Shown here in pieces: positions 169-33,282 of a stretch of 64,000 nucleotides of DNA; position 1 is the stretch's first letter, and each line of letters starts with the position of its first letter. Both the position numbers and the translations under genes were made by a program. The notes beneath the pieces were generated by a model, which saw only the letters and a list, made by a program, of their open reading frames with translations, was not told the DNA's origin and did not search any database. Source of the DNA: an uncultured Bifidobacteriaceae bacterium (GTDB lineage: Bacteria > Actinomycetota > Acidimicrobiia > IMCC26256 > PALSA-555). The DNA is taken from positions 1,069-65,068 of the forward strand of contig CAZKTS010000288.1 of assembly GCA_964555735.1 (NCBI GenBank), written 5' to 3'.

Positions 169-446
169 TCGCGCGGTTGCTCGCGGGCGCGGTCGTGCAT
201 GAGGTGCGGACGCGCGCAGCCGCGCTCTGCGTCGTGCTGGCGGAGTGGTGCGCGCCGGAGCCGGAGGCGGCCGCGGCCGAGGAGGACGACGATGAGACGC
301 GCGGGTGGGCGGTGCCGATGCAGCGCCCGCTGACGGCGGAGTCGCGGGCGCTGATGCGACCGCCGCCGCGCGATGACGGGGCGCCGGAGGACGACATCAC
401 GCGAGCGGGCAGTCTTCGGGATAGGGTGAGGGCATGGCAGACGTAA
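165..446 (+). CDS. hypothetical acidic protein (93 aa)
   Basis: The GTG start overlaps the upstream stop (GTGTGA). GC3 is high. The end overlaps the portal start. Confidence 0.5.
   Translation: MIARLLAGAVVHEVRTRAAALCVVLAEWCAPEPEAAAAEEDDDETRGWAVPMQRPLTAESRALMRPPPRDDGAPEDDITRAGSLRDRVRAWQT
422..427 (+). promoter_or_regulatory. class-L box variant TAGGGT, 6 nt before portal ATG 434
   Basis: gggaTAGGGTgagggcATG. Confidence 0.35.
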
Positions 447-2506
447 CCGCGTTGTCGAGCTTCGGGCTCGACACGACCACGCTGGGCGCCGACTTCCCGA
501 CGCTCGGCTTCGATGAGAGCCCGCGCTATCGGCTGCTCGATCGCCGGCAGAGCTACTACTCGTGCACGCAGCACGACGCGAAGACGTACGACTTCGACGG
601 GCGCACGATCGTCAACCCGGGGAACGTGCTCGTCTCGCCGATGATCGCGGAGGCGTCGAACCAGGGGCTAGTGCCGCTGCGCGATCGGCGACCGTCGGCG
701 CCGTATCGTCTGCCGCGAGTGATCGCGGACACCTTCACAAACCTGATCTTCGGTCACCAGCGGTGGCCGACGTTCCGCAGCGAAGACCCCGATACGGAGG
801 AGTTCATCCGCGCGCTGGTCGACGCGCAGGCGCTGCGGACGGTGATGGTGCGGGCGCGCACGCTTGGCGGCTCGACGGGCACGGTCGGGTTGTCGTGGCG
901 CTACTGGAACGGGCGACCGCGGACGCGCGTGCACAACGCGAAGAACCTCTTTGTCCATACGTGGGCCGATCGCGAGATGCTGATCCCGGCGCACGTCAGC
1001 GAGATTTACCGCTTTACGCGGCTGGAATACGACCGCGACACGCGGCGCATGGTCGACCGCCCGTACTGGTATCGGCACGATTGGACGCCGGCGGCGGACG
1101 TCGCGTTCTTCGAGGTGCCGATCGACGACACGGTCAACCCGCAGTGGCAGATCGACCCCGCGCGCAGCTACGTGCACGGCGACGGCGAAGCGCACTTCGT
1201 CTGGATCCAGAACCTCCCGAGCGACGACATCTCGACGATCGACGGCGTGCCGGATTACGAGGGGCTCTATGACACGTTTGATGCGCTCGACGTCCTGTAC
1301 TCGGTGCTCGTGCATGGCACGACGCTGAACCTCGACCCGACGCTGCTGCTGAAGGTCGATCCCGATCTGCTGGAGCGATCGGGCGCGGTGCAGAAGGGCA
1401 GCCGCGCGGCGCTCAACGTGGGGCCCGCGGGCGACGCGCGGTACATGGAGCTGCAGGGCACGGCGGTCACGGCAGGGACGGCGCTCTTCATGAAGATGCG
1501 CGAGTCGGCGTTGGAGGTCGCGCAGTGCATCATTCCCGATCCGAATCAGGTCGGGGCGAGCGGGACGTCGAGCGTGGCGCTGAAGGTCGTCAATGCGCCG
1601 ATGCTGAGCAAGGCGGACGTGATCCGTGAGCAGTACGATCACGGGATGCGGCAGCTGCTGCAGCAGCAGCTGCGAGGCGCGAGGCGGTTGGAGATCGGCG
1701 AGGAGTCGGGGCTCTACCTCGAACTACCAACGCGCGTTGAGGTGCAGCTGCAGGAGGACGACGACGGGATCACGCGAGAGGTCGAGGTGCGCGTCGATCA
1801 GAAGCCCGGCGGGTCGGATGTGGTGGTGACCGAGTGGGGCGACTACTACACGCCGACGGCGACGGACCAGCAGCTGACCAGCGCGACGCTCACGCAGTTG
1901 ACGGCGTCGAAGCTACTCGCGCAGGAGGTGGGCGCCGACCTCGCGGCGCGCGTGATGCGCATCAACGCGCGCGGGAATTGGGCGCAGCTGGAGGTCGAGC
2001 GGCGCGCGGCGGCCGAGCGGCAGCAGTTCGAGCTGGAGACGGGCGGCGCGGTGGAAGAGCCCGACGCGATGCCGGACGGCGCGAGTGGGCGGGGCGTGGC
2101 GGAGCTGCTGAAGGCGACGCGCGGCGCGCTGCCGGCGGCGCTGACGGTCAACGAGCTGCGCGAGCTACTCGGCCTGCCGTCGCGTGGCGAGGACGGCGAC
2201 GTAACGCTGGGCGAAGCGGTCGAGCGGGTGAAGCGGCCGCAGCAGCCGATCGAGCAGGGCATGCCGGTCGACGACGGCGGCGGGTATGGCGCCGAGGACG
2301 ATCGAGCGCAGCCTGGCGATGAGCCCGGGCAGTCGGCGGCCGAGCAGCTGGCGGCGGACATGACGGCGGCGAGCGTGGAGCGGTGCGAGCATGGGTCGGT
2401 GAATCGGTGCCGGCTGTGCGGGATCGAGCGCGAGCGGGGCTTTGACTTGCTGCCCGATGGCCAGCCGGTGTGGCGCGTGGCGTGGCGCGCGATGCGCGAT
2501 GGCTGA
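434..2506 (+). CDS. portal protein (690 aa)
   Basis: Size, and position directly upstream of and coupled to a MuF-like gene (the SPP1 gp6/gp7 arrangement). The C-terminus is Cys-rich (CEHGSVNRCRLCG). Confidence 0.7.
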   Translation: MADVTALSSFGLDTTTLGADFPTLGFDESPRYRLLDRRQSYYSCTQHDAKTYDFDGRTIVNPGNVLVSPMIAEASNQGLVPLRDRRPSAPYRLPRVIADTFTNLIFGHQRWPTFRSEDPDTEEFIRALVDAQALRTVMVRARTLGGSTGTVGLSWRYWNGRPRTRVHNAKNLFVHTWADREMLIPAHVSEIYRFTRLEYDRDTRRMVDRPYWYRHDWTPAADVAFFEVPIDDTVNPQWQIDPARSYVHGDGEAHFVWIQNLPSDDISTIDGVPDYEGLYDTFDALDVLYSVLVHGTTLNLDPTLLLKVDPDLLERSGAVQKGSRAALNVGPAGDARYMELQGTAVTAGTALFMKMRESALEVAQCIIPDPNQVGASGTSSVALKVVNAPMLSKADVIREQYDHGMRQLLQQQLRGARRLEIGEESGLYLELPTRVEVQLQEDDDGITREVEVRVDQKPGGSDVVVTEWGDYYTPTATDQQLTSATLTQLTASKLLAQEVGADLAARVMRINARGNWAQLEVERRAAAERQQFELETGGAVEEPDAMPDGASGRGVAELLKATRGALPAALTVNELRELLGLPSRGEDGDVTLGEAVERVKRPQQPIEQGMPVDDGGGYGAEDDRAQPGDEPGQSAAEQLAADMTAASVERCEHGSVNRCRLCGIERERGFDLLPDGQPVWRVAWRAMRDG

Positions 2507-3551
2507 CTCGGTGGCGGCCGCGCTGCGGGTGAACCGGCAGCAGGCGCGGCAGATCGCGGAGGACGTCGGCGTCAAGGAGGTGCGCCGCATGCTGACGCGC
2601 GCGGCGGACGACTTGCGCAGGCGGCTCGATGCGACGGTTCGCACTGGGGCGGCGACGCCGACGACGATCGAGGCGATGCAGACGACGCTGGCGCAGGTCG
2701 AGGCGGTGACGCGCGGAATCGCGACGGGTGTGGGTGACATCACGCGAGGCGCGGCGCGCGAGGTGGCGCAGGTGGGCGCGTCGCAGGCGTACAAGTTCCT
2801 CCGCGTCTCACAGCGCCGCTTTGGTGGGCAGCCGCTGCCGGTGCGTGAGGCGGCGATGATCAATCGCGCCGTTCGCGGCGCGGATGCGAGCCTGCTGCGG
2901 CGCCTAGCGTTGACCGAGACGCAGCGCGCGCGGCAGGCCGAGCGCGTGACGCCGGAGCCCGCGAGCAAGCCGCCGGCGTTCAGCGTTGACCGTCCAACGA
3001 GCGTGTTGCAGCGATACACGGCCGAGACGATCGGGCACTTCGAGGAGGAGCTGCAGACTGGGCTGGTGACCAAGCAGCCATGGGGCGAGGTGCGCGAGCG
3101 GCTGGTGACCAAGTCGACCTTCCTGCAGAGTGCGCCGGCGCACTGGGCGGAGCGCATCGTGCGGACGGAGACGATGGGCGCCTACAACCGCGCTGGGTGG
3201 GAGGCGACGCGCGAAGCCGATGAGACGCTCGGCGACATGGTCAAGGTGCTGGTGGCGACGATCGACGGGCGCACGGGCTGGGACTCGCTGCAGGTGCACG
3301 GCCAGATCCGGCGCGTCGACGAAGCGTTCGAGTGGGCGGGTGGGCTGTACCAGCACCCGCCGAATCGCCCCAACGATCGGGAGATCGTTGTGCCGCATCG
3401 ACTCGCGTGGCCGCTGCTGCCGGAGTTCGCGCCGCGGTCTGACGCCGAGGTGGTGGCGGCGTGGATTCGAGATCGGCGGCGTGGATCTCCGCCGCCGCGC
3501 CCGCAGCGGTCGACGGTGCCGCTCGATGAATTTGGCGGAAAACGCCGGTGA
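2499..3551 (+). CDS. MuF / SPP1 gp7-like minor head (head morphogenesis) protein
   Basis: ATG 2499 overlaps the portal stop (ATGGCTGA). Motifs VRTETMGAYNRAGWEA ... GRTGWDSLQVHGQ ... HPPNRPNDREIVVP are typical of the Phage_Mu_F domain. Confidence 0.85.
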   Translation: MADSVAAALRVNRQQARQIAEDVGVKEVRRMLTRAADDLRRRLDATVRTGAATPTTIEAMQTTLAQVEAVTRGIATGVGDITRGAAREVAQVGASQAYKFLRVSQRRFGGQPLPVREAAMINRAVRGADASLLRRLALTETQRARQAERVTPEPASKPPAFSVDRPTSVLQRYTAETIGHFEEELQTGLVTKQPWGEVRERLVTKSTFLQSAPAHWAERIVRTETMGAYNRAGWEATREADETLGDMVKVLVATIDGRTGWDSLQVHGQIRRVDEAFEWAGGLYQHPPNRPNDREIVVPHRLAWPLLPEFAPRSDAEVVAAWIRDRRRGSPPPRPQRSTVPLDEFGGKRR

Positions 3552-3585
3552 TCCGTGCAGGATGGACGGGGCGTCGCGCGTGAGA

Positions 3586-3591
3586 TAGCGT
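3586..3591 (+). promoter_or_regulatory. class-L box variant TAGCGT, 7 nt before GTG 3599
   Basis: gagaTAGCGTgtagatcGTG. Confidence 0.4.
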
Positions 3592-3598
3592 GTAGATC

Positions 3599-3862: not shown

Positions 3863-4236
3863 TGGCGAACGACAACGGATCCACGCCGGGCGACGGGCAG
3901 TCGAGCCCGTTCGGCGACGGGCGCGGTGGCATCGGAGGCAACATGGCCGGCGGCAACGATTTCACGCAGAACCCCACGGGCGGCATCGGCAAGAGCGGCG
4001 GCAACGACTTCGTCGTCAACCCGACCGGCAACGGGCCGAAGGGCAACGCGCAACCGGCGGCGTCGCAGCCGGCGCAGCCGAAGGGCAACCTACCGGACCT
4101 CAACGCGCAGACGCAGGCGCGCACGCTGAGCCCGGTGGACGACGCGACCCCGAGCACTTCGAGCGGGCCGCGCGCGAACCTGCTCGGGGCTGGGACCATC
4201 GGCGACGGGCGCAAGCCCTACACGCTGCGGGGCTGA
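3862..4236 (+). CDS. Gly/Asn-rich head-module protein with internal GGNDF-x2-NPTG repeats
   Basis: Starts MANDNGSTPGDG. Carries two copies of GGNDF(T/V)(Q/V)NPTG. Coupled to the upstream ORF. Confidence 0.55.
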   Translation: MANDNGSTPGDGQSSPFGDGRGGIGGNMAGGNDFTQNPTGGIGKSGGNDFVVNPTGNGPKGNAQPAASQPAQPKGNLPDLNAQTQARTLSPVDDATPSTSSGPRANLLGAGTIGDGRKPYTLRG

Positions 4237-4239
4237 TCG

Positions 4240-4656: not shown

Positions 4657-4670
4657 CAGGAGCACTGACC

Positions 4671-5348: not shown

Positions 5349-5383
5349 TCGTGCCGGGGCGGCACGGAGAGGCGTGGGAGAAC

Positions 5384-6158: not shown

Positions 6159-6187
6159 TTGACGTAGCGCGCGCCGGCGCAGAGAAT
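6159..6187 (+). promoter_or_regulatory. sigma70-like promoter TTGACG-N17-GAGAAT upstream of the major capsid gene
   Basis: -35 at 6159-6164, a 17-nt spacer, -10 at 6182-6187. The -35 sits in the loop of an imperfect GC hairpin (6147-6177). Confidence 0.4.
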
Positions 6188-7648: not shown

Positions 7649-7657
7649 TCGCGGCGT

Positions 7658-7756
7658 GGAGGCGGGCGGGTCGGAAGTGCCAGCCTTCGCTCCTTCGTGA
7701 GTGGGGCGCCTTCCGCCCGCCCCCTCGCTCTCGGGTGTCTCGCTTGCGAAGGAGCG
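7658..7756 (+). terminator. GC-rich nested stem-loops downstream of the major capsid gene (terminator/attenuator candidate); the outer arm pairs with the next gene's RBS
   Basis: GGCGGGCGG (7661-7669) pairs with CCGCCCGCC (7713-7721). CGCTCCTTCG (7688-7697) pairs with CGAAGGAGCG (7747-7756), which contains the AAGGAG RBS of the gene at 7766. There is no T-tract. Confidence 0.4.
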
Positions 7757-7765
7757 ATCTAATCA

Positions 7766-8515
7766 ATGCCGCTGAAGCGTGGAGCTAGTCGCGAAGCCGT
7801 GGCGTCGAATGTCGCTACGCTGGTGCGCGAGGGCTACCCGCAGAAGCAGGCGGTGGCGATCGCGCTATCTCAGTCGGGCAAGTACGAGGACGACCCGGAG
7901 GCGCAGCGCGACGCCGAGGCGCGCGCGTGGTGGAGCATGCCGCCGCTCTCGCAGTGGGCGAGCGCGCGCGAGCGGTTGCGCGTGGTGCCGGCCGAGCAGA
8001 AGACGGACTATTCGTGTGGGCCGGCGGCGCTGGTGGGCGCGCTGTCGGCGTTCGGCGTGACGGCGACCGAGGATGAGCTGGCGGCGGCGGCCGACACGTC
8101 GGCGGCGGCGGGGACGTCGGCGGCCGGACTGATCGCGGCGGCGGAGGGGTACGGGATCGACGGCCGGTGCGCGGTGGGGATGACGGTCGATGAGCTGGCG
8201 GGGCAGCTGCGCGCGGGGCGGATCGTGGTGGCGTGTGTGCAGGCGCCGCGTGCAGCGCCGGAGGCTCTCGACGCGCTAGGGGTGGACGTGTCGCACTGGG
8301 TGGTGCCGGTGGCGGTGCGAGACGGCCAGGTGGAGCTGATGGACCCGAGCGTGCCGGGGGCGCTGACTGCCATGTCGGTCGACGACTTCGAGGCGGGCTG
8401 GTACGGGTACGATGAGGGTGAGCAGTGGCACGGGTTCGGCGTGGTGCTCTCGGGGCCGACGCCGGCCAGGGCCGAGCTGGCGCTGCCGGTGGCCGTCTAC
8501 GGCCGACCCGGATAG
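7766..8515 (+). CDS. papain-like cysteine peptidase (C39-like) with a conserved N-terminal basic module
   Basis: Candidate Cys/His/Asp triad: TDYSCGPAALVGAL (Cys), DVSHWVVPVAV (His), LMDPS (Asp). The N-terminus reads EGYPQKQAVAIALSQSGK. AAGGAG RBS. Confidence 0.7.
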   Translation: MPLKRGASREAVASNVATLVREGYPQKQAVAIALSQSGKYEDDPEAQRDAEARAWWSMPPLSQWASARERLRVVPAEQKTDYSCGPAALVGALSAFGVTATEDELAAAADTSAAAGTSAAGLIAAAEGYGIDGRCAVGMTVDELAGQLRAGRIVVACVQAPRAAPEALDALGVDVSHWVVPVAVRDGQVELMDPSVPGALTAMSVDDFEAGWYGYDEGEQWHGFGVVLSGPTPARAELALPVAVYGRPG

Positions 8516-8518
8516 GAT
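8513..8518 (+). promoter_or_regulatory. class-L box variant TAGGAT, 7 nt before ATG 8526
   Basis: cggaTAGGATgggggtcATG. Confidence 0.35.
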
Positions 8519-9243: not shown

Positions 9244-9253
9244 GTGATAGGCT
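9244..9253 (+). promoter_or_regulatory. class-L box GTGATAGGCT (extended -10-like), 7 nt before ATG 9261
   Basis: gcGTGATAGGCTcgggggcATG. No SD in the gap. Confidence 0.55.
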
Positions 9254-10217: not shown

Positions 10218-10769
10218 ATGCCGCGCGTTCGCCCGCTCCAACCGTTCCAGGCGAAGCGGTCGCTTGCGAACCGGCTGAGCCCGACGGTCGATCGGCTGCG
10301 GCAGCTCGCGACGAACCTCGGGCTGCGGTCGCGCCGGGTGTTCCTCGTGTGGACGACCTTCGATGGTGGCCAGCGCGGCGAGGGCGATGAGCAGCTGATC
10401 GCGAAGATCGAGCTGTTGCCTACGCCGAAGGTGAGTGAGCTGGTGGGGCAGCAGTTCCTCGGCTACGCGGGCGGCGTGTTGCCGACCGGGTCGTTGCGGA
10501 TCGAGAAGGTCAGCGCCGGCTTCACCGAGGCGCAGCTGATGGGGCGTGAGATCCCGGGCGTGCCGGGGCTGACCACGATCCCGCAGCCGTATGATTTCTT
10601 CTACGAGATGATCGAGGACGGGCGCGACCTGCTGCGACCGATCCCGATGCGGTATCGGATGTTCGGATCGCCCTATCGCAAGGAGGGCTCGGTCAGCTGG
10701 ACGCTGCTCTTGGAGCGCCAGCAGGAGGCGCCCAACGTCAACGAGCGGCTGCCGTTCGCGCCGACATGA
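10218..10769 (+). CDS. hypothetical head-tail joining protein (183 aa)
   Basis: Position only. Coupled (ATGA) to the next gene. Confidence 0.5.
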   Translation: MPRVRPLQPFQAKRSLANRLSPTVDRLRQLATNLGLRSRRVFLVWTTFDGGQRGEGDEQLIAKIELLPTPKVSELVGQQFLGYAGGVLPTGSLRIEKVSAGFTEAQLMGREIPGVPGLTTIPQPYDFFYEMIEDGRDLLRPIPMRYRMFGSPYRKEGSVSWTLLLERQQEAPNVNERLPFAPT

Positions 10770-11269
10770 CGCGCGTGATCGAGCTGAAGCAGGCGCCCGA
10801 CTTCTTCGGGCGGGTGCTCGCCGGCGAGATGAAGCAGGCGGCGCTGCGCGGGCTCTACTCGGCGGCAGTGCGGTCGGTGCAGCTGCTGCAGACGCAGGAG
10901 ATCCAGCGGGCATCACCCGCGCCGGTCGACCGCGACGTGTATCGCGCGGGGTGGCGCGCGGAGAAGCTGATCGACGGCGCGGCGGTGGTCAATTCGGTCC
11001 CGTGGGCCGCGATGATCGAATATGGCGTGCCCGGTCGGAACGTCACGATCGGCAGGCAAGCGGTGCTCGCGTTGGCGGAGTGGGCGAGGCGCCGACTAGG
11101 CGTGTCGAGCGACAAGGCGCTATCGACGGCGTGGGCGATTCTGATCGCTGGGAAGCGGCGAGGGCTTTTCCGGCGCGGCGAGGGGCTTCGGATCTTGGAG
11201 ACGTACGCGCGCGAGCGCATGCCGCAGACGATCCGTGAGGAGATCGCGCGGGCGCTCGATGCGATGTAG
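10766..11269 (+). CDS. HK97 gp10-like tail-completion/neck protein
   Basis: SPAPVDRDVYRAGWRA ... NSVPWAAMIEYG resembles the HK97-gp10 family pattern (aPvdtG.lr ... YA..vE.G). Confidence 0.55.
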   Translation: MTRVIELKQAPDFFGRVLAGEMKQAALRGLYSAAVRSVQLLQTQEIQRASPAPVDRDVYRAGWRAEKLIDGAAVVNSVPWAAMIEYGVPGRNVTIGRQAVLALAEWARRRLGVSSDKALSTAWAILIAGKRRGLFRRGEGLRILETYARERMPQTIREEIARALDAM

Positions 11270-11272
11270 GCT
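11267..11272 (+). promoter_or_regulatory. class-L box TAGGCT, 7 nt before ATG 11280
   Basis: gatgTAGGCTcgggtgaATG. Confidence 0.45.
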
Positions 11273-12224: not shown

Positions 12225-12256
12225 TGCCGGGGATGGACGGCTCTACGGGCGGAGGA

Positions 12257-12262
12257 TAGGCT
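12257..12262 (+). promoter_or_regulatory. class-L box TAGGCT, 6 nt before sheath ATG 12269
   Basis: gaggaTAGGCTagcgccATG. Confidence 0.5.
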
Positions 12263-15270: not shown

Positions 15271-15795
15271 ATGGGCGATTCACGCAAGGTGGTGGGCTAT
15301 GATGAGGCGGGCGCGGCGTTGATGGACGCCGAGCCGGTGGCGGCAGAAGCGCCGACGGCGAATTTGCCGGAGGCGTCAACGGACGAGTTGCCGACGTGGG
15401 CCGTGGTCCCGTCGGGGCTGAAGCCGCCGCGGGGGCGCAACGTGCTCTTCCTGCGGATCCCGGCCGACTTCACCGACACGCCGTACAAGGGCGAGCGGCA
15501 GTGCACGATCTGGACGCTGAGCGACGGCGACGAGAAGATGGCGCTGCGCCGGTGCCAGGGCGACCCGAACCGCGCCGCATCGGAGTACACGCGCCAGATG
15601 CTGCGCGCGGTCGATGGCGTGGTGTCGGCGTGGGACAAGCCGGCGGGGCCCGGGTCGGTCGACGAGTTCTGGCGCGAGATCGGGGCGAAGGGGCGCAACA
15701 TGCTGATGCGCGTCTACACGCAGCTCCACCTCCCGACGGACGCGGAGATGGCCAATTTTTTCGAGCACTGCGTCGCTGTCAGAACGGCGAGCTGA
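15271..15795 (+). CDS. tail assembly chaperone (short, G-like product)
   Basis: Lies directly upstream of the tape measure gene. Contains the slippery heptamer T_TTT_TTC near its 3' end. Confidence 0.7.
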   Translation: MGDSRKVVGYDEAGAALMDAEPVAAEAPTANLPEASTDELPTWAVVPSGLKPPRGRNVLFLRIPADFTDTPYKGERQCTIWTLSDGDEKMALRRCQGDPNRAASEYTRQMLRAVDGVVSAWDKPAGPGSVDEFWREIGAKGRNMLMRVYTQLHLPTDAEMANFFEHCVAVRTAS

Positions 15796-16121
15796 GAGAT
15801 CCCGACTTCGGCGGGCCGGAATTGCTCGATGAGGTGGTCGGCCTGCGGGCGCCGTCGGCGCTCGGCGACGCACTCTTTCCGGCGATGTTGAGCTTTGCGG
15901 CGGACGCCGGCGAGCTACAGCGGGCGCGCGTGCGGCGGCTGGTGTTCTTGGCCCGCTTCGGGCGGCAACCGCTGCTCGGGTGGGACGACGTCGAATCGAG
16001 CGAGATCCGGCTCTACGTGGACGTCCTGGTAGAGCTGCTACGGGAGGAGTCGGAGTCGGCGCAGGCGCAGGCGAAGCGGATGCAGGCGCAGGCGCGGCAA
16101 TCGGACGACGACTCGGCGTGA
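15271..16121 (+). CDS. tail assembly chaperone, -1 frameshift fusion product (GT-like)
   Basis: The -1 frame is open from the slippery site (15756-15762) to TGA 16119-16121 with high GC3. It reads ...ANFF|RALRRCQNGELRDPDFGG... and ends 13 nt before the tape measure start. Confidence 0.65.
15756..15762 (+). other. -1 programmed ribosomal frameshift slippery heptamer T_TTT_TTC
   Basis: aaT TTT TTC in the zero frame fits the X_XXY_YYZ pattern. A T6 run is conspicuous in ~70% GC DNA. Its position matches the conserved G/GT frameshift of tailed phages. Confidence 0.7.
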
Positions 16122-16127
16122 TACGCT
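16118..16127 (+). promoter_or_regulatory. class-L box GTGATACGCT, 7 nt before tape-measure GTG 16135
   Basis: gcGTGATACGCTctgaggcGTG. Its TGA is also the stop codon of the frameshift product. Confidence 0.5.
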
Positions 16128-18362: not shown

Positions 18363-18480
18363 GGCGCCTAATCGCCGCCCTACGGCGCCCGGAGCCGCCA
18401 GGGCACCCTAGCCCCCATCCGGGGCCGCCGGACGCGCCCACGGGGCGATTAGGCGCCCTGGCGGGTTGCGCGGCGGTGGT
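18362..18480 (+). repeat. composite intergenic repeat, copy A
   Basis: Contains GGCGCCTAATCGCC (18363-18376) and its exact inverse GGCGATTAGGCGCC (18444-18457), the 17-mer GGGCACCCTAGCCCCCA (18401-18417) and a CCCTACGGCGCC variant of the core. Confidence 0.75.
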
Positions 18481-18489
18481 CGGCGCAGA

Positions 18490-18495
18490 TAGGCT
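18490..18495 (+). promoter_or_regulatory. class-L box TAGGCT with a 21-nt leader and AGGAGA RBS before ATG 18517
   Basis: cagaTAGGCTaggggtcAGGAGActgagccgATG. Confidence 0.45.
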
Positions 18496-18516
18496 AGGGG
18501 TCAGGAGACTGAGCCG

Positions 18517-20271: not shown

Positions 20272-22034
20272 TCGACGAATACCCCGAGCAGGGGTACTAC
20301 CCTGGCGCGCTCGTACGACTTGCGATCCGGTTCGACGACCCGAAGCGCAAGCGGTTCAATCGCCAGTTTCCGCGCTATCCGGCCACGGCGCTCAAGCGCA
20401 AGATCCCGCGCGTGCTCGACATCGTGCAGGACGGCGCCGATCTGGTGCTCGTACCGCGCGGCTCGAAGGACTTGGCGGTGTCGCCGCAACGGCAGGCGGT
20501 GAGCGATGACCAGCTGACACAGGTGATCGACGGCGTGATCCCGCTGAATGCGACGCTGTCGCTGAACGGCCTGCGGACGGCGAGCACGCTGTCGCTTGAG
20601 ATCCCGTATGCCGATCTGCCGGTAGAGCCGCGCATGGTGCGCGGCGTCGGCGTGGAGTTCTACCTCGGGACGCTGACGGCCGAGGAGTTCCGGCGCGGCA
20701 TCAGTGGCGGCCTGCGCGCGGGTACGAACGGGCAATTTGTGCCGCTCAATTCGATCCCATATGACTACGTCGACGGCTTCGGCCGGAAGCGGACAAATCT
20801 ACGCTTCGAGGGCTGGGTCGATGCGTGGGAGGCGTCGTGGAGCAGCGACGGGCAGCCCACGGTCAAGCTGGAGTGTCGCGACAACACGACGCTCTTGATC
20901 GATACGGAAGCGCCGCAGCAGCTGACGATCGATCCCAAGCTGCCGGTCACCCGCGCGTTTGCGGACTACCTTGCGGCGTTCCCGCAGTTCTTCGGGCTGC
21001 GCGTGCGCTACTACCCCGACGGGGCCGAGGTGCCGATCTATCGCAAGGCGCTGCAAAAGAGCGCGTTTAACCCGCGCCTGGGGCCGATGGCGACCGGCGA
21101 GAAGATGAGCATCTGGGACTACTTCACCGATGTTGCCGGAGCGATCGGCCACACGGTGCGATTCGACGGGCGCGCGATCATCGTGCAGCGACCTCGCACG
21201 TACTACGGCGGGCAGTACCCGCCGCGCCCCGACGATCCGTTCCAGGGGCGGCTCTTGCCAAGCGGCCGCGCGCTGCCGTTTCGGCTGTTCGTGTACGGGC
21301 GAAACATCCTCGACTATTCGGTCAAGCGAAACTTCACGACGGCGGGCCCGACGACGATCGAAGTGCGGTGCTACTCGAACACGAAGAAGCGAACGCTGGT
21401 CGTCCGCTACCCGCTGAAGAAGGACCGACTGGAGCGCGGCCTACCTGGGAGTTTGCTACCCGATGAGAAGCTCGTGGTGTTTCGCCTGAGCGGCATCGGC
21501 GATGACAAGACCTTGAAGATCGTCGCGCAGCAGATTTACGAGCAGCTGGGGCGCAACGAGCTGGAGGTCATGATTCATACGAAGAACCTCGGCTCGTTCG
21601 GCGGCAGCACCCTCGACCCCGACCTACTCGATTGCAAGCCTGGCGACACGGTGCAGCTGGAGATCAGCGACGATCCGACCACGGCCGAGGGCAACACGAC
21701 CAGCGCGATCGAGCGCGAGGGGACGGTGGCGACGCGCGCGGCGGCATTCGTGCGCGAGCTGGGCTACAGCGACGACTTCGCCCGGGCGTACGGGCGTGCG
21801 AAAGAGGCGGCGCGGCACCAGCAATCGTTTTACCGCGTGAAGCGCATGGAGTATCGGTGGTCGATGGATCAAGGGATCGATGTGGTCGTGACCGGGATCA
21901 ACTACCTGGAGGTCCGTGGCGATGAGCTGCCGGAGGGTGAGGTGCAGCTGAGCGCGGAGGATGTGCGGGCGCAGCAGGCGCAGCGCGCGAGAGAGTTCCC
22001 GATCGCGTCGCACGGGCGCCGGCTGGGTGGGTGA
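20268..22034 (+). CDS. baseplate hub protein (P2 gpD / Mu gp44-like)
   Basis: Synteny, plus a FEGWVDAWEASWSSDGQPTVKLECRDNTTLL-type motif common in gpD-like hub proteins. Confidence 0.55.
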   Translation: MIDEYPEQGYYPGALVRLAIRFDDPKRKRFNRQFPRYPATALKRKIPRVLDIVQDGADLVLVPRGSKDLAVSPQRQAVSDDQLTQVIDGVIPLNATLSLNGLRTASTLSLEIPYADLPVEPRMVRGVGVEFYLGTLTAEEFRRGISGGLRAGTNGQFVPLNSIPYDYVDGFGRKRTNLRFEGWVDAWEASWSSDGQPTVKLECRDNTTLLIDTEAPQQLTIDPKLPVTRAFADYLAAFPQFFGLRVRYYPDGAEVPIYRKALQKSAFNPRLGPMATGEKMSIWDYFTDVAGAIGHTVRFDGRAIIVQRPRTYYGGQYPPRPDDPFQGRLLPSGRALPFRLFVYGRNILDYSVKRNFTTAGPTTIEVRCYSNTKKRTLVVRYPLKKDRLERGLPGSLLPDEKLVVFRLSGIGDDKTLKIVAQQIYEQLGRNELEVMIHTKNLGSFGGSTLDPDLLDCKPGDTVQLEISDDPTTAEGNTTSAIEREGTVATRAAAFVRELGYSDDFARAYGRAKEAARHQQSFYRVKRMEYRWSMDQGIDVVVTGINYLEVRGDELPEGEVQLSAEDVRAQQAQRAREFPIASHGRRLGG

Positions 22035-23095
22035 TGGCTGGGCGCAGCACTGACCAGAGCACGATGGCGCAGGCGTTCGCCGGGCCCGGGATGGACACTC
22101 GGATCTGGGCGTCGTGGGCGACGGTGGACGCGCCCGATGAGACGGGCGAGCAGGCGGTGGTCTTCGACCAGGAGGACGGCCAAATCTATGTGGCGTGCAC
22201 GCTGCAGCCGTCGATGATCCCGGTCAATGCGCGGGTGGGGATGCTGTTCGCGGGTGCAGGTGAGGCGGCGTGGTTTCCGCTGCTCGCGGGCGACGAAGTG
22301 TTCGTGATCTTGCCCGAGGGCGACCCGCGCGCGGGTGCGCTGATCGTGAGCCGCGCAAACAACGCCTACGATCCGTTTCCGTTCGACTCGGTCGCGGGCG
22401 TGGATCCGACGATGAATAGCCTGGCGGTGCTGCGCACGCGCCCGGCGGTCACGATCGAGAGTGGCGCGACGGTGATGCTGCGCAGCGCGGCGGCCGGCGC
22501 GTTCTTTCGGCTGGACGCGAAGGGTGGCATCACATCGCGCGATGGGTCGACGGGTGTGCTGCAGCAGAGCGCGGATCTGTGGGGCTATCAGTCGGGGCCT
22601 GGCGATGCGTTCCACCAGTTCGATCTGAATGCGCAGCGGTACAGCTGGCAGATCGGCTCGGCCAACGCGACCTTCTGCGGCGATGGCGCCGACGTCGCGA
22701 CGCAGGGCCGCTCGATCGTGAAGCTGCCGGGGCCGTGCACGCTGGCGATGGGCGGGCTCGATCAAAACAACGCGGTGGAGCACGCGGCGAGCACGGAGTC
22801 GGTGGTCAATCTGCTGGTGCAGGTGCTGGCGCTAGTGGGCGCCAACATCGCGGTGGCCAACCCGGGGCCGCTGACGGGCGCGGCGCTGGCACCGCTGCTC
22901 AACGCGCTGACCACGCCGACGGTGCAGGCGGCGATCGTGGCGGCGATTCAGGCGGCGGCGGTGCAACCGCAGGCGTCGAGCATCGCGGCGGCGCTGTTCG
23001 CGGCGCTGGCGACGCCGACGGCGAAGCCCGCGGGCGTGCCGGGGTTCGGGCAGCTGCAGCCGGGGCTAGGTTCGCAGGGGCTGGTGATCGGGTAG
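22031..23095 (+). CDS. baseplate central spike (gpV/gp45, VgrG-like OB-fold)
   Basis: AGAGEAAWFPLLAGDEVFVILPEGDPRAGALIV matches the gpV/gp5 OB-fold signature (GDEV.V.f..GD...p.i.g). Confidence 0.7.
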   Translation: MMAGRSTDQSTMAQAFAGPGMDTRIWASWATVDAPDETGEQAVVFDQEDGQIYVACTLQPSMIPVNARVGMLFAGAGEAAWFPLLAGDEVFVILPEGDPRAGALIVSRANNAYDPFPFDSVAGVDPTMNSLAVLRTRPAVTIESGATVMLRSAAAGAFFRLDAKGGITSRDGSTGVLQQSADLWGYQSGPGDAFHQFDLNAQRYSWQIGSANATFCGDGADVATQGRSIVKLPGPCTLAMGGLDQNNAVEHAASTESVVNLLVQVLALVGANIAVANPGPLTGAALAPLLNALTTPTVQAAIVAAIQAAAVQPQASSIAAALFAALATPTAKPAGVPGFGQLQPGLGSQGLVIG

Positions 23096-23098
23096 GCT
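23093..23098 (+). promoter_or_regulatory. class-L box TAGGCT abutting ATG 23099 and 6 nt before ATG 23105 (amidase)
   Basis: cgggTAGGCTATGgcgATGgccATG. Confidence 0.45.
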
Positions 23099-24744: not shown

Positions 24745-24868
24745 GCGCCTCGCTGCCGCGCCTTTGGGCCCCGGGCACCCTAGCCCCCACGGGGCGCCCA
24801 AAAGCGCGCCTACGGGGCGCCCACGCGGGCTCCCGGGGTGCTCCGGGGCCGTGGGGTCACTGGGGCCC
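24745..24868 (+). repeat. composite intergenic repeat, copy B
   Basis: Contains the identical 17-mer GGGCACCCTAGCCCCCA (24773-24789), AAAGCGCGCCTACGGGG (24801-24817), and ACGGGGCGCCCA twice (24789-24800 and 24812-24823). Confidence 0.75.
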
Positions 24869-24878
24869 GTGATAGGCT
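24869..24878 (+). promoter_or_regulatory. class-L box GTGATAGGCT, 7 nt before GTG 24886
   Basis: ccGTGATAGGCTcctcggcGTG. Confidence 0.55.
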
Positions 24879-24885
24879 CCTCGGC

Positions 24886-25677
24886 GTGGCCGTCTCCATC
24901 CTGATCAACCAGCCTGGTAGTGGGGCGCCGCCGGGCGTGGCCGGCCAGGCGCGCGAAGACCTCACGACTGGATTCCCGGTGCAGCTGACGGCGATGGGCG
25001 GGCCGTTTGCGGCCTACCAGTGGTCGATCGTCGACAAGCCGGTGGACATCGTGGCCGGGGTGCAGAGTGCGGCGGTGCTGAGCGCCCCGGCGGCGGCGGT
25101 GACGTTGTATCTGCCGGCGGATCTGGAGGGCACGTCGCTGGTGCAGGTGGTGGTCGATTCGGGGTCGGGGCTCGGGGCGCTACCGGACGACATCGCACGG
25201 ATCACGTTCTACTGCGGGCCCGGGCTCAATGCGTTGAACCCGGATCCGACGCGGCTGCCACGCCGTCGGATGGCATTCCGCGAGCAGACCGAGCACAACG
25301 TACCGGACGCGATTTTCCCGCTCGGGAACCCGCGCGGGTGGGCCGAGGAGTGGGAGCGGTGGTTCGCGGTGATCCAGGCGGCGGGCGCGACGTCATCGCA
25401 GGCGATGGGGCGCGTCGTGCTGCCGGCGGGTGGCCCGGCGTCGCTGCTGTCGAGCTATCAAGTGGCGGGCGTCAATCGCGTCGCGGTGGGGACCGTCGAC
25501 GTGACGTTCCCGGTGCCGCTGCCGAGCGCGAGTTACGCGGTGCTGCACGCGGCTCGCGGGGTGGACGGGCAGCTGTACGTCGACACGGAGACCGTGAACG
25601 GCTTTCGCATCTATCGGGCCGACTCGGCGGGCACGCTGATCGACGCCGACTTTTCGTTCTCTGTGGTGCTGGCGTGA
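24886..25677 (+). CDS. hypothetical baseplate-module protein (263 aa)
   Basis: The GTG start lies 7 nt after a GTGATAGGCT box. High GC3. Confidence 0.5.
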   Translation: MAVSILINQPGSGAPPGVAGQAREDLTTGFPVQLTAMGGPFAAYQWSIVDKPVDIVAGVQSAAVLSAPAAAVTLYLPADLEGTSLVQVVVDSGSGLGALPDDIARITFYCGPGLNALNPDPTRLPRRRMAFREQTEHNVPDAIFPLGNPRGWAEEWERWFAVIQAAGATSSQAMGRVVLPAGGPASLLSSYQVAGVNRVAVGTVDVTFPVPLPSASYAVLHAARGVDGQLYVDTETVNGFRIYRADSAGTLIDADFSFSVVLA

Positions 25678-26582: not shown

Positions 26583-27699
26583 CTTCCCGACGCGGCTGGA
26601 CTTGTACGCGATCGGCCGCGACTACGTCACGCAGCGGGCGCGCAAGATCGATCCGGTCCAGGTCGACATCTCCGGCAGCGACATCAATCTCTATGTGGGG
26701 ATCGCGAGCTACGTGGGCAGCGCGGTGGTGCTCGCGCTCGTGCAATCGATCAATTCGCTGCTCTTGAACGGCGCCTACCGCGAAGACCTCGATCGGTACG
26801 CGCTCGATCGCTACTCGAACCAGGTGCCGCGCAAGGGCGCCGCGGCAGCGCGCGGCTTCGTGACGATCGCACGGCCGACGGCGGCGGCCGGTGCTGGATC
26901 GATCCCGCTCGGGACGCGGCTGCTGACGCTCTCGGGCGTGGAGTACACTACGGTCGCGGACGTCAGCATGGGGGGCGCACAGCTCACGCTGACGAATGTG
27001 CCGGTCCGCGCCGCGCAGGCGGGCAAGTCGAGCCAGACGGGCGCAAACACGATCCGACTCTTCGGCGACCTCGGCGCGCTGTGGGACCAGACGCTGACGG
27101 TGACCAACCCCGAGCGCACGGCGAACGGCGAGGACGCCGAGGAGGACGACGTCTACCGCGAGCGGATCCGTGCCTACTGGGGCGCGGCGCAGCGCGGGAC
27201 GCTCGCGGCGATCGAGTTCGGCGCGCGCAAGGTGCCTGGCATCACGAGCGCGCTGGCCGAGGAGGTGATCGATCCGACCGATCCCAACAAGCCCGCGCGC
27301 GTGGTGAATCTCTACATCGCCGACTCATCCGGCGTGGCGTCGGCGGCGATCGCGGCGGAGGTGCTGGCCGAGCTGCGCGAGTGGCGCGCTGGGGGGATCG
27401 CGGTGATCGTCAACACCAGCGTTCCGGTGATCGTCGACGTGCAGCTGCATCTGACGTTCGCGGCCGCGGTCGACACGACGTCCTTGACGGGGACGATTCG
27501 CGCGGCCGTCGCGGACTACATCAACAACCTGGGCGTGGGGCAGACGCTCTATCGCGCGGCGATTTACTCGGTGCTGCAGCGCTACACGCAGAACGGGCTG
27601 ATCGTAAACACGGCCAGCGTGGTGAGCCCGGCGGGCGACGTCGTGCCGGAGATCGGGCAGGCGTTGCGCACGCGATATGAAAACGTGGTGGTGGTCTGA
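26575..27699 (+). CDS. baseplate J-like protein (P2 gpJ / Mu gp47)
   Basis: SGSDINLYVGIASYVGSAVV ... REDLDRYALDRY..VPRKGAAAARGFVTI is a Baseplate_J-type pattern. ATGGCTGA overlap. Confidence 0.75.
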   Translation: MADFPTRLDLYAIGRDYVTQRARKIDPVQVDISGSDINLYVGIASYVGSAVVLALVQSINSLLLNGAYREDLDRYALDRYSNQVPRKGAAAARGFVTIARPTAAAGAGSIPLGTRLLTLSGVEYTTVADVSMGGAQLTLTNVPVRAAQAGKSSQTGANTIRLFGDLGALWDQTLTVTNPERTANGEDAEEDDVYRERIRAYWGAAQRGTLAAIEFGARKVPGITSALAEEVIDPTDPNKPARVVNLYIADSSGVASAAIAAEVLAELREWRAGGIAVIVNTSVPVIVDVQLHLTFAAAVDTTSLTGTIRAAVADYINNLGVGQTLYRAAIYSVLQRYTQNGLIVNTASVVSPAGDVVPEIGQALRTRYENVVVV

Positions 27700-29552
27700 T
27701 GCCGGCGCGCGGCGCGTTGACGCGCGACGAGCTGTTCCAGGTGTTGCGGTCGGTCGTCGACCCTGAGTACATCGAGCCCTTCCTGCTGCGCGGGTACGAT
27801 TCGGGGCTCGAATCGCTGGAGATGCTCTGCGAGGTGCTCGCGCGTGTATCGCAGTCGATCGACCGCTCGACGCAGCGGCTCTACATCGAGCCATGGAGCG
27901 GACAATCGGATGGGCCGGCGGTGGGCGCGGCGCTGGCTCGGATCACGCTGCGGCTGCAGCGATCGGCGCGCTTGAATTTCCCGCTCACGATCACGGCGGG
28001 CGAAGTGATCTTCGAGGAGATCGCAACGGAGGCGGGGGCGACGGGTGGCGTGCCGGTCGCGACGGGGCGCCGGTACACGATCGAGCACGACGTGACGTTC
28101 TTGCCCGGCGAGCCGGGGCCGATCGACGTGCCGGCGATCGCGCTGCGCCCGGGGTACACCGCGGGGCGCGTGCTGCCGGGGACGGTGACGGGCATCCTGC
28201 AGCCTGGGGCGGGGCTCTCGAATGCGGGCGCGAGCGTGGTGCAATCGCCGCCGGCGTCGCTGCTCGTGCTGGCGCCGCAGCCGGACGTCATCGCGCCGCA
28301 GCAAGTCGGGCAGATCGTGGAGCTGGTCGGCGGCGCGAGCGCGGGGCAGCAGCGGCGCGTGAGTGCATACGAGCGGGCGACGCTGGGCGCCGGCGGTAGC
28401 GTGCAGCTGGCGCCGGAGGTGGTCGTGCGCGCGGTGGCGACGGCGCCGGTCGGGACGTTCGAGCCGGGCGAGACGGTGCGCCAGGTCGACACGGCGCTAC
28501 CGGCGCCGGGGGTCATCGCCTCGGGCGTCGTTCTGGCCGCCACGTCACCCGCAGCCGGGCCGCCGTGGTGGCTGGTGGTGCTGCAGCAGACCGGCGCCTT
28601 CCAGCCGACGGCGGGCACGGTGGGGCCGCTGACGGGCGTGCTGTCCGGCGCCACGTTCGCGCTCGAAGACATCTCGCAGGGGCCGACCCTGGCGAGTGAG
28701 GTGCGGTCGGCGGTGTGGCGCGTGCTGACGTGGGGTGATGACCTCGGGCTGACGGTCACGAACGTCGGCGAGGGGTTGCCAGGCGAGCTGGCGACGCTCG
28801 ATGAGCTGGGGGCGGAGCGCGGCGTGTACCGGGCGCCGGGCGAGACTGACGAGAGCTACCGCGAGCGGGTCTATCACCCGGCGGACGTGGTCAGCCCGGA
28901 TGCACTGCTGCGCACGGCGAACCGCATCCTGGCGCCGATCGGCCTGCAGGCGTGCTTGCGCGAGGTGGGGCAAGCGAAGTTCCGCGGGCTGTTCGCCGAC
29001 GGCGACCCGCTGAGCACCGATCGAGCGGTGGCGTTCGCGTATGACATGGACGGCGTCCGATTCACGGGGCCGCAGGTGGGATTCTTCATCGAGGGCGAGG
29101 TGGTCACGCAGCAAGCGGGGCCGGGTGCGCCGATCGCTCGCGGGCGCGCGAGCGTGGTCCCGGCGGGCGTGCTGGTGGGCGTCTCGCGAGTTGAAGGGCA
29201 GTTCGTGCCTGGCTTCAACGCAGTCGGGTCGGTGAGTGGCGCGCTGGTGGTGGTGGCCAGCGCGGTGGGCGGGCCGAGCCCGCTCGACCGCTGGCGGGTG
29301 GTGCTCGATTACGAGCGATTCCGCGCGTACTTCGAGATCGGTGTGCCGCGGGTGCAGCTCGGCGACTTCGGCGTGCCGTTCGATCAGCACCCGCACAACG
29401 CATTCGACGCGGCGCCCTATCTGGCCGGGTTCGACGGGTTCCCGGTGACGGGCGCGGTGTTGATGCGGTCGATCTGGCAGGCGATCGACCGCGCGCGCGC
29501 GGGCGGTGTCGGGTTCGACCTGTACGTGGAGACGACGGGCTGTCTCGGGTGA
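27699..29552 (+). CDS. baseplate/fibre-adaptor protein (617 aa), function by position only
   Basis: Coupled to the J-like gene and precedes the fibre genes. Confidence 0.4.
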   Translation: MPARGALTRDELFQVLRSVVDPEYIEPFLLRGYDSGLESLEMLCEVLARVSQSIDRSTQRLYIEPWSGQSDGPAVGAALARITLRLQRSARLNFPLTITAGEVIFEEIATEAGATGGVPVATGRRYTIEHDVTFLPGEPGPIDVPAIALRPGYTAGRVLPGTVTGILQPGAGLSNAGASVVQSPPASLLVLAPQPDVIAPQQVGQIVELVGGASAGQQRRVSAYERATLGAGGSVQLAPEVVVRAVATAPVGTFEPGETVRQVDTALPAPGVIASGVVLAATSPAAGPPWWLVVLQQTGAFQPTAGTVGPLTGVLSGATFALEDISQGPTLASEVRSAVWRVLTWGDDLGLTVTNVGEGLPGELATLDELGAERGVYRAPGETDESYRERVYHPADVVSPDALLRTANRILAPIGLQACLREVGQAKFRGLFADGDPLSTDRAVAFAYDMDGVRFTGPQVGFFIEGEVVTQQAGPGAPIARGRASVVPAGVLVGVSRVEGQFVPGFNAVGSVSGALVVVASAVGGPSPLDRWRVVLDYERFRAYFEIGVPRVQLGDFGVPFDQHPHNAFDAAPYLAGFDGFPVTGAVLMRSIWQAIDRARAGGVGFDLYVETTGCLG

Positions 29553-29558
29553 TAGGCT
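29549..29558 (+). promoter_or_regulatory. class-L box GTGATAGGCT, 6 nt before ATG 29565 (fibre A)
   Basis: ggGTGATAGGCTcggccgATG. Its TGA is the stop codon of the upstream gene. Confidence 0.55.
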
Positions 29559-29564
29559 CGGCCG

Positions 29565-30470: not shown

Positions 30471-30477
30471 TCGGCGT

Positions 30478-30487
30478 GTGATAGGCT
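30478..30487 (+). promoter_or_regulatory. class-L box GTGATAGGCT, 7 nt before ATG 30495
   Basis: gtGTGATAGGCTcggtcgcATG. Confidence 0.55.
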
Positions 30488-30494
30488 CGGTCGC

Positions 30495-32503: not shown

Positions 32504-32513
32504 CGGGACCACG

Positions 32514-32840: not shown

Positions 32841-33030
32841 CCAACGCACGATCGCGGACGTGGCGCGTGAGATGGAGATCGAAGAGGAGTCGGCGCGGCT
32901 CGAAGCGCGCGCGCGTGCACTGGTGGCGCGTGCCGCGGCGCTCCTCGACGGGCAGGCGCGGCGTCAATCCGGCCAGCATCGGCTCGATCTACCGCCGGAA
33001 ATGATGGCGCTTCGCAAGCCATCGGCCTGA
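32833..33030 (+). CDS. hypothetical small helical protein (65 aa)
   Basis: Overlaps the upstream stop. High GC3. Confidence 0.4.
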   Translation: MNNQRTIADVAREMEIEEESARLEARARALVARAAALLDGQARRQSGQHRLDLPPEMMALRKPSA

Positions 33031-33040
33031 GTGATAGCGT
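33031..33040 (+). promoter_or_regulatory. class-L box GTGATAGCGT, 8 nt before ATG 33049
   Basis: gaGTGATAGCGTttcgggccATG. Confidence 0.5.
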
Positions 33041-33048
33041 TTCGGGCC

Positions 33049-33282
33049 ATGGCAAGTGTGTTCATGGCTCTCGCGCAGTCGCGCAAGGCGTGGGTGGTGC
33101 TGGCCGCGGTGGTCGGCGTGATCGTGATGAATGTCACGGGGCGCGTGCCGGGCGAACGCGCGCTGGACTTCATCAAGTGGATCGTGATGACGTGGCTCGG
33201 CGCGCAGGCGGCCGAGGACGCCGCGGGCAAGCTGCTCGTTCCACCCAAGAGTGGCGGCGATGAGACTGGCGGTGTCGAGTGA
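33049..33282 (+). CDS. two-TM small membrane protein (class II holin-like)
   Basis: ATG 33049 lies 8 nt after GTGATAGCGT. Hydrophobic segments AWVVLAAVVGVIVMNV and FIKWIVMTWLGAQAA, with a charged C-terminus. Confidence 0.5.
   Translation: MASVFMALAQSRKAWVVLAAVVGVIVMNVTGRVPGERALDFIKWIVMTWLGAQAAEDAAGKLLVPPKSGGDETGGVE

Follow-up and report, generated by a model that had tools for sequence, protein, structure and literature searches.

The subject of this report is a short DNA box, with the core GATAGGCT, that recurs just upstream of start codons in a 64,000-nucleotide (nt) stretch of contig CAZKTS010000288.1 (positions 1,069 to 65,068 of the forward strand; hereafter the window, numbered from its first base). 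The window belongs to an uncultivated myovirus-like phage. Its guanine-plus-cytosine (GC) content is 70% and all credible genes lie on the + strand. Packaging, head, tail and lysis functions occupy bases 1-36,351, where a portal-like protein is followed by a Mu F-like call (a weak Pfam match) and the major head protein, and further on by the tail sheath, an Amidase_2 endolysin and a glycine-rich fibre-like protein. Replication and recombination functions fill 36-64 kb and include UvrD-like and DnaB-like helicases, a primase, a family B DNA polymerase, and RecA-like and SbcCD-like proteins. We present evidence that the boxes are probably the -10 elements of promoters whose transcripts begin at, or next to, the start codon.

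A recurrent box upstream of start codons

An initial annotation of the window had listed TAGGCT, or a close variant of it, ending 6-8 nt before the start codons of 12 genes in the structural half, together with a thirteenth copy (18490) followed by a 21-nt leader containing AGGAGA. All 13 were found, 12 of them at 6-8 nt and the last with its leader, as set out below. The gap is the distance from the end of the hexamer to the start codon.

Box 1, 420..427, + strand: GATAGGGT; 6-nt gap; ATG 434 of a portal-like gene, 434-2506 (weak assignment: phrog_533, E 4.7e-4). An in-frame TAG at 422 closes the frame, making 434 the first possible start.
Box 2, 3584..3591, + strand: GATAGCGT, with GT before it; 7-nt gap; GTG 3599, in a frame that opens at 3596.
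Box 3, 8511..8518, + strand: GATAGGAT; 7-nt gap; ATG 8526. The alternative ATG 8517 overlaps the box, and the TAG of the box is the stop codon of gene 7766-8515.
Box 4, 9244..9253, + strand: GTGATAGGCT; 7-nt gap; ATG 9261, lipoprotein.
Box 5, 11265..11272, + strand: TGTAGGCT; 7-nt gap; ATG 11280, where the frame opens exactly. The TAG of the box is the stop codon of gene 10766-11269.
Box 6, 12255..12262, + strand: GATAGGCT; 6-nt gap; ATG 12269, tail sheath (phrog_23).
Box 7, 16118..16127, + strand: GTGATACGCT; 7-nt gap; GTG 16135, tape-measure-like gene. The TGA in the box closes the overlapping frame 15396-16121.
Box 8, 18488..18495, + strand: GATAGGCT; 21-nt leader with AGGAGA (18503-18508); ATG 18517.
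Box 9, 23091..23098, + strand: GGTAGGCT; 6-nt gap; ATG 23105, Amidase_2 endolysin. The TAG of the box is the stop codon of gene 22034-23095.
Box 10, 24869..24878, + strand: GTGATAGGCT; 7-nt gap; GTG 24886.
Box 11, 29549..29558, + strand: GTGATAGGCT; 6-nt gap; ATG 29565. Gene 27699-29552 ends with the TGA of the box.
Box 12, 30478..30487, + strand: GTGATAGGCT; 7-nt gap; ATG 30495.
Box 13, 33031..33040, + strand: GTGATAGCGT; 8-nt gap; ATG 33049, small membrane protein. GTG 33031, within the box, is an alternative in-frame start.
Possible weaker fourteenth copy, 60233..60240, + strand: AGTAGACT (GTGAG-TAGACT), GTGAGTAGACT; 8-nt gap; ATG 60249.

The gap thus measures 6 nt at four sites, 7 nt at seven and 8 nt at one. 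Exact TAGGCT occurs eight times on the + strand (9248, 11267, 12257, 18490, 23093, 24873, 29553 and 30482), always at a listed site as the initial annotation had maintained; a single copy on the - strand, at 40878, had escaped it. The other sites carry TAGGGT (422), TAGCGT (3586 and 33035), TAGGAT (8513) or TACGCT (16122). All six copies credited with the longer form GTGATA(G/C)(G/C)(G/C)T were located (9244, 16118, 24869, 29549, 30478 and 33031), and the core common to the set is better written GATAGGCT, in which G-14, A-13, T, A and the closing T show little or no variation. Two further copies lie in the 9.6 kb of the same phage upstream of the window (L002): TAGCGT at 3065, 7 nt before ATG 3078, and TAGGCT at 7117, 6 nt before ATG 7129. 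Both starts coincide with gene calls of another, independent pipeline.

A position matrix built from the listed sites was run over both strands of the 64 kb at a threshold of at least 10 bits. It returned 13 matches on the + strand, all of them listed sites, and one on the - strand (40878); between 33.1 and 64 kb the + strand gave no match at this threshold. The copy at 60233, which precedes a 184-residue protein of unknown function in the replication half, falls below it with its TG displaced by one base, and 60233-60251 is possibly an extra leaderless promoter in that half. A k-mer count that took no account of the box, over positions -25..-1 of 69 gene starts, placed box words first (GATAG, GATAGG, TAGGCT and GTGATA; p 2e-11 to 5e-9). 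Positionally, 13 of the 69 gene starts have a TANNNT hexamer ending 6-8 nt upstream of them; among other ATG/GTG triplets the same is true of 8 of 2,610 (binomial P 7e-20). These starts are unequally divided between the halves: the virion half holds 12, out of 38 starts, and the replication half a single one out of 31 (Fisher P 0.004).

The box signal is positional and is not a matter of count. Base composition alone predicts about ten copies of TAGGCT per strand, and the initial annotation had reckoned with roughly nine; that null ignores codon usage and does not stand. Any reading frame across TAGGCT requires a stop or a rare codon, and codon-shuffled genes yield only 0.91 copies, so that absence from genes is uninformative. 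The enrichment resides in the non-coding DNA, where about 1.4 kb holds eight copies, and in their constant distance from the start codon. Within genes, TANNNT was observed 44 times on the + strand where codon-shuffled controls give an expectation of 103 +/- 10, a reduction to less than half that would be expected if -10-like sequences inside genes were selected against or, alternatively, if T|A at codon junctions were generally avoided.

The base pattern of the box

Conservation was tallied over 15 sites, comprising the 13 in the window and the two upstream of it. T-12, A-11 and T-7 are each present in 15/15, G-14 in 14/15 and A-13 in 13/15, while T-15 is found in 6/15, giving a TG upstream of the hexamer in about 40% of sites. 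TAGGCT is exact at 9/15; the variants TAGCGT (twice in the window) and TACGCT (once) lose AGG and retain T, A and T. This is the pattern of a -10 element of the sigma-70 family (high-GC TANNNT type, extended by a G or TG) and not of a ribosome-binding site. Given that the hexamer ends 6-8 nt before the start codon, transcription would be expected to start on the A or G of that codon.

Across the same sites no shared -35 element or upstream activator site was found (a weak T near -35 is present in 8/15), and no base is conserved between -45 and -16. TGGACG lies 17 bp upstream of both Box 2 and Box 6. Hairpins upstream of the boxes are strong at 8513, 12257, 18490 and 24873 and ordinary elsewhere, and are not consistently above background.

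Start codons and Shine-Dalgarno sequences

Seven of the start codons (434, 3599, 11280, 12269, 16135, 29565 and 30495) are forced by an in-frame stop just upstream, which is often the TAG or TGA inside the box. Further support comes from the protein products. A lipoprotein signal peptide, MRKLIGVLMVSAAVALAGC, with an LAGC lipobox starts at 9261, homologue N-termini align from their first residues with the products of 12269, 16135 and 18517, and orthologue N-termini align with that of 24886. ATG 23099, which adjoins Box 9, would fall upstream of the predicted transcription start.

The initial annotation had reported that the gap contains no Shine-Dalgarno sequence. This holds in the main, since no GGAG, GAGG or AGGA stands at a usable distance at 10 of the 12 leaderless-type sites, and is to be qualified by Shine-Dalgarno-like words near four starts: GAGG 1-2 nt before 434 and 16135, too close to serve as a Shine-Dalgarno sequence, GGAGG 13 nt before 12269, and AGGA inside TAGGAT (8513), 8 nt before 8526. 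As had also been described, neighbouring genes without the box have GGAG or AAGGAG or are joined by overlapping stop and start codons, whereas the box-led genes have no usable Shine-Dalgarno sequence. The possibility that GTGAT is an extended Shine-Dalgarno sequence pairing with AUCAC of 16S rRNA was considered and rejected, as it lies 11-13 nt from the start codon.

The box in related phage loci

The tail sheath found no match by blastn or tblastn among 50,697 phage records, and the phage therefore has no annotated relative. Metagenomic contigs of up to 83 kb carry its portal sequence, and three other contigs of the same phage are 100% identical and so hold no information on microdiversity. 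No tRNA genes were found in the phage sequence. A portal search of genome contigs for a prophage or host gave no match, and the sheath alignment includes only two contigs from genome bins (metagenome-assembled genomes, MAGs), assigned to Methylocystis sp. and to an uncultured proteobacterium, which is too weak a basis for naming the host. Soil, sediment and sludge metagenomes commonly contain relatives, whose sheath proteins are 30-62% identical to that of the phage. From these, 110 non-redundant related loci totalling 1.79 Mb (labelled L###) were oriented with the sheath gene on the + strand and compared.

In these loci GnTAnnnT stands exactly 6 nt before the start of a long open reading frame at 90 sites, against 4 on the other strand; at 6-7 nt the figures are 135 sites in 66 of the 110 loci against 13 on the opposite strand. 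The 6-nt peak stands above the 3-nt coding periodicity. When hexamers are selected only by their position at 6-7 nt, T-15 and G-14 emerge as enriched. The longer form GTGnTAnnnT is likewise strand-specific (125 against 35) and its distances to the start cluster sharply at 6 nt and, more broadly, a second time at 16-27 nt. Where it lies 12 nt or more upstream, a Shine-Dalgarno sequence is found between box and start in 37 of 54 cases. The relatives therefore show two arrangements, one at 6-7 nt with no Shine-Dalgarno sequence and another at 12-35 nt, often with one in between.

Individual genes illustrate both. The sheath N-terminus aligns from residue 1 with those of the relatives, whose sheath genes carry GTGnTAnnnT-like boxes (GTGAGAGCAT, GTGATACCCT and GTGGTACTTT, and in L113 exactly GTGATAGGCT) followed by a 20-30 nt leader with GGAG. 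Single-protein scans of viral contigs with the products of 27699-29552 and 24886-25677 gave no match; an alignment of the latter to the relatives did subsequently succeed. Of its seven orthologues, five (L167-L171) have retained GnTAnnnT at 6-8 nt from the aligned start codon, with divergence in the flanks and in the middle triplet, and L172 has a Shine-Dalgarno sequence instead. The orthologues of 16135 have a TANNNT box 6 nt before the start in L020, L107, L116, L028 and L121, and coupling or a Shine-Dalgarno sequence in its place in L005 and L006. In L006 and L103 the orthologues of 18517 are preceded by TAAGTT and a 21-22 nt leader that contains AGGAG, and start with ATG.

A box that stands either at a fixed 6-8 nt with no Shine-Dalgarno sequence or at a variable distance with one behaves as a signal for the start of transcription would be expected to, and is hard to understand as a translation signal. 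This comparative evidence is the strongest argument for a promoter.

Some relatives also carry a perfect 22-26 bp palindrome, GACG(T/C)CGGATCGATCCG(A/G)CGTC, that is absent from the window. It occurs at 3982, 8653, 13705 and 17794 in L019/L107, at 4391, 8354, 13702 and 17875 in L020, and at 2585 and 6625 in L116, with four copies per 22 kb that usually abut a leaderless GTGnTACCCT box. Its arms co-vary between L019 and L020, and it could be a terminator hairpin or the site of a dimeric regulator.

Searches for factors, terminators and other promoters

About 40 proteins, drawn from the replication half and the upstream 9.6 kb, were scanned with Pfam and PHROGs. None of them contained a sigma, RNA polymerase or clamp domain, and the phage sigma-like proteins of which the initial annotation had spoken thus have no counterpart in this set. 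The DxDGD catalytic motif was not found in the three forward reading frames. A consensus scan of 1-20 kb returned intrinsic terminators and canonical promoters at chance level, except for TTGACG-17-GAGAAT before the capsid gene, and an Rfam search of 18.0-25.2 kb yielded nothing relevant.

The major head gene itself (ATG 6272, with the Shine-Dalgarno sequence GGAG) is not box-led. The canonical-looking TTGACG-17-GAGAAT (6159-6187) lies about 85 nt upstream of its ATG, and a strong GC-rich hairpin lies 3' of the gene at 7649-7730. This layout suggests that the gene for the most abundant virion protein has a separate, leadered promoter and a terminator.

Comparison with known systems

In Deinococcus radiodurans, TANNNT 6-7 bp upstream of open reading frames has been established experimentally as the -10 element driving leaderless genes (PMC12340547), and TANNNT about 12 bp before the start is the generally accepted signature of leaderless genes in Actinobacteria and Deinococcus-Thermus (PMC3160421). 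The arrangement in the window is similar to these (TANNNT at 6-7 bp, no Shine-Dalgarno sequence, both ATG and GTG, and an optional -35; PMC12340547, PMC3160421, PMC8079986). The ratio of ATG to GTG among its box-led genes, 9:3, also resembles that of Streptomyces leaderless transcripts, of which 68% begin with ATG and 32% with GTG (PMC8079986). The context differs, being a phage late region here and a bacterial chromosome there. In those bacteria, moreover, the middle three bases have low information, whereas here they are mostly GGC and the flanking G and A are fixed; the boxes would thus form a distinct promoter class and not generic housekeeping promoters.

The closest phage parallels come from Thermus. 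In phage Lalka27a, 16 late promoters that share a conserved TAGGGT have been predicted; for half of them starts were mapped 6 bp downstream, and most of the transcripts are leaderless (bioRxiv 10.64898/2026.04.20.719267). Its authors attribute the hexamer to a phage factor and propose read-through transcripts (bioRxiv 10.64898/2026.04.20.719267). In phage phiYS40 most middle and late mRNAs are leaderless, as Sevostyanova et al. 2007 are summarised in PMC3594737. Shared with these phages are many promoters spread through co-directional late genes and few terminators; host RNA polymerase is used there. The class-specific hexamer of Lalka27a is one base away from that of the window (TAGGGT there, TAGGCT here). 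Its conserved C at -25 is absent here, where G-14 and A-13 are conserved instead. There is no detectable protein homology to either phage (sheath tblastn). As the relatives come from soil, sediment and sludge metagenomes, the host is probably not a thermophile.

Late promoters of phage T4 (TATAAATA) likewise consist of a single extended -10-like element of about 8 bp, have no -35 and stand in many copies before virion genes. T4 late transcription depends on the phage's own gp55 sigma factor together with gp33 and the sliding clamp, and yields leadered mRNAs. Of the approximately 40 proteins scanned here, none resembled gp55, another sigma factor or a clamp.

Other features of the window

The longest non-coding stretches (18363-18516, 24745-24885, 40560-40760 and 52896) are marked by short GC-rich repeats. 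The repeat AAAGCGCGCCTACGG occurs at 24801, 40623, 40728 and 52896; CCTAATCGCC at 18367, 40562 and 40667, and also inverted at 18453, where it completes a 14-bp stem; and GGCACC(C)TAGC(A/C)CCC at 18403, 24775 and 40703. The two late-region spacers, directly upstream of the boxes at 18490 and 24873, fold at -91 and -84 kcal/mol. No Rfam match was obtained for the spacer repeats, and these spacers may be terminators without a U-tract or protein-binding sites.

Between replication-module genes, about 0.8 kb (40650-41420) has no coding signal and a GC content of 0.75, and is rich in spacer repeats and palindromes; it could be an origin or a regulatory region. The only - strand box-like match, GTGGTAGGCT (40878), lies within it and is followed by no start codon at 6-8 nt. 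A 91-residue protein (43887-44162) matches the Thoeris anti-defence Tad2-like domain (E 2.6e-22), and its gene is flanked by a direct repeat (43744 and 44177) with an estimated length of 55-60 nt, at least 20 nt of it exact. The overlapping frames 15271-15795 and 15396-16121, before the tape-measure-like gene, have the usual layout of a frameshifted tail assembly chaperone. In the open reading frame 48837-50444 the first 200 or so codons are Arg/Gly-rich and of low complexity, and probably do not represent a real frame or start, while the C-terminal part resembles a helix-turn-helix protein; gene calls in 48.1-50.4 kb need revision.

Discussion

The initial annotation had proposed that the boxes are -10 elements of leaderless promoters. 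Base pattern, spacing, strand and regional specificity (the box is specific to one strand and to the virion/lysis half), related loci and orthologous sites all lend support to this proposal, and we put the probability that the boxes give rise to leaderless or near-leaderless transcripts at roughly 0.8. Each would be the extended -10 of a promoter with the consensus (T)G-A-TAGGCT and no shared -35, with at least 13 such promoters in the window and two upstream. The reader would be a sigma-70-family holoenzyme, almost certainly that of the host (sigma-A-type), acting through extended -10 contacts. Transcription would begin on, or within one base of, the A or G of the ATG or GTG, yielding mRNAs with neither a 5' leader nor a Shine-Dalgarno sequence, and the 5'-terminal AUG or GUG would be the direct landing site of 70S ribosomes or initiation complexes. 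At 18490, and at many copies in the relatives, the promoter would sit further upstream and a normal Shine-Dalgarno leader would follow.

Because the boxes are confined to packaging, virion and lysis genes, they probably constitute a late promoter class. No convincing terminators were found between them in the scan of 1-20 kb, so the transcripts probably read through and form a nested set. On such read-through RNA a box-led cistron would be internal and without a Shine-Dalgarno sequence, and each would therefore be translated mainly from its own transcript. The fixed GGC and A-13 hint, by analogy with class-specific hexamers elsewhere, at a class-specific factor.

Several points weigh against a leaderless-promoter function. 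The case is built from sequence, and its late timing, though probable, is deduced from gene content. Five starts have nearby alternatives (23099/23105, 8517/8526, 24838/24886, 33031/33049 and 9177/9234/9261), and 8526, 23105 and 33049, whose alternatives lie within 18 nt, are less certain. The Shine-Dalgarno-like tetramers at marginal distance before 12269 and 8526 may allow read-through transcripts to be translated too. The only binned relatives are proteobacterial MAGs, and leaderless genes are much rarer in Proteobacteria (PMC3160421). Lastly, GGC and A-13 are far more conserved than in housekeeping TANNNT promoters, which may reflect a specific protein factor.

The most serious rival, on account of a shared GATAGG core and position, is a translation-initiation signal acting at the mRNA level, read on polycistronic RNA by a ribosomal component or phage factor in the manner of the Start-Associated Sequences (SAS) of Cluster K mycobacteriophages. 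The SAS is a 13-bp sequence, GGGATAGGAGCCC, that contains AGGAG, lies 3-7 bp from the start and is found before non-structural genes only (PMC3203893, PMC11373665). It has been proposed to act in translation (PMC3203893), and its promoters are thought to lie in an upstream ESAS element (PMC11373665). Like the box it is a short asymmetric repeat in 11-19 copies of one orientation, with a GATAGG core and sometimes an upstream stop codon inside. The box also occupies the position of a ribosome-binding site, its AGG could pair with the CCU of the anti-Shine-Dalgarno sequence, and many copies stand in one co-directional gene block without clear terminators. Against this, the invariant T, A and final T are not 16S-pairing purines, TAGCGT and TACGCT dispense with AGG, and at 18490 and in the relatives the box lies 12-35 nt upstream with an ordinary Shine-Dalgarno sequence in between. 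The likeness to the SAS itself is limited: the SAS does not fit TANNNT, and the box has no AGGAG, consists of an 8-10 bp core ending in T with a gap of 6-8 nt, and lies in the structural half, the opposite arm to that of the SAS, at 12 of the 13 gene starts that have it. We consider a translation signal improbable.

Quite improbable, too, is that the box is primarily the site of a phage regulator, whether a late activator or a stoperator-like repressor, or else a sigma-dependent pause element on the non-template strand. A-13 and GGC are indeed conserved beyond the needs of a housekeeping -10, the box is asymmetric, intergenic and in a single orientation as are the stoperators of Cluster A mycobacteriophages (a contrast drawn in PMC3203893), and the class-specific hexamer of the Lalka27a late promoters was attributed by its authors to a phage factor. 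Such a site or pause would, however, leave unexplained both the 6-8 nt register with the start codon and the lack of a Shine-Dalgarno sequence at exactly these genes. The middle triplet also varies freely at orthologous sites where T, A, T and G-14 stay, and no candidate regulator was found. A regulator is nonetheless compatible with the promoter interpretation, as a factor acting at the same promoters.

A third explanation, that the box is an RNA-processing site at which a host or phage endoribonuclease cuts polycistronic late RNA before the starts, would also account for strand specificity, fixed distance and copies in front of Shine-Dalgarno leaders. It would make the position-by-position match to a sigma-70 extended -10 (G-14, TG) a coincidence, and identical layouts in Deinococcus, Streptomyces and Thermus phages are primary transcription starts; we regard it as very improbable. 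Scarcely tenable is a compositional artefact, in which rare AT words and stop codons would collect in the scarce non-coding DNA of a 70% GC phage and starts would have been chosen to fit: the 'never in genes' observation does carry no weight at an expectation of just 0.9 TAGGCT in genes, at five sites the upstream frame ends in the TAG or TGA of the box, and five starts have nearby alternatives, but positions after the stop are conserved too (GGCT; final T in 15/15), seven starts are forced by frame closure and five supported independently, the contrast with other ATG/GTG triplets reaches P 7e-20, and the peak at exactly 6 nt reappears in 66 independent related loci, with no counterpart on the opposite strand.

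If the boxes are -10 elements of leaderless promoters, the mechanism is not new and is established elsewhere. What the analysis would provide is a promoter map for an uncultivated, high-GC myovirus lineage of about 83 kb that has no cultured or annotated relative, and it would fix a dozen start codons of a kind that gene callers tend to misplace in GC-rich DNA. The combination of many -10-only late promoters with leaderless mRNAs would be extended from Thermus phages to widespread environmental phages, the signature being present in 66 of 110 related loci. Because hosts rich in leaderless genes belong mainly to Actinobacteria and Deinococcus-Thermus, the coexistence of leaderless and Shine-Dalgarno-led versions of genes among the relatives could aid host prediction.

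A further suggestion, possible but on the whole doubtful, is that an unrecognised phage factor redirects the host RNA polymerase to these -35-less late promoters and that initiation at the same genes has switched repeatedly between Shine-Dalgarno-led and leaderless as the lineage passed from host to host. Were this true, the yields of virion proteins would be set by their own promoters, and the lineage would amount to a natural experiment in the evolution of initiation modes. The same genes are found with both modes across the relatives, and could be used to study how one is converted into the other.

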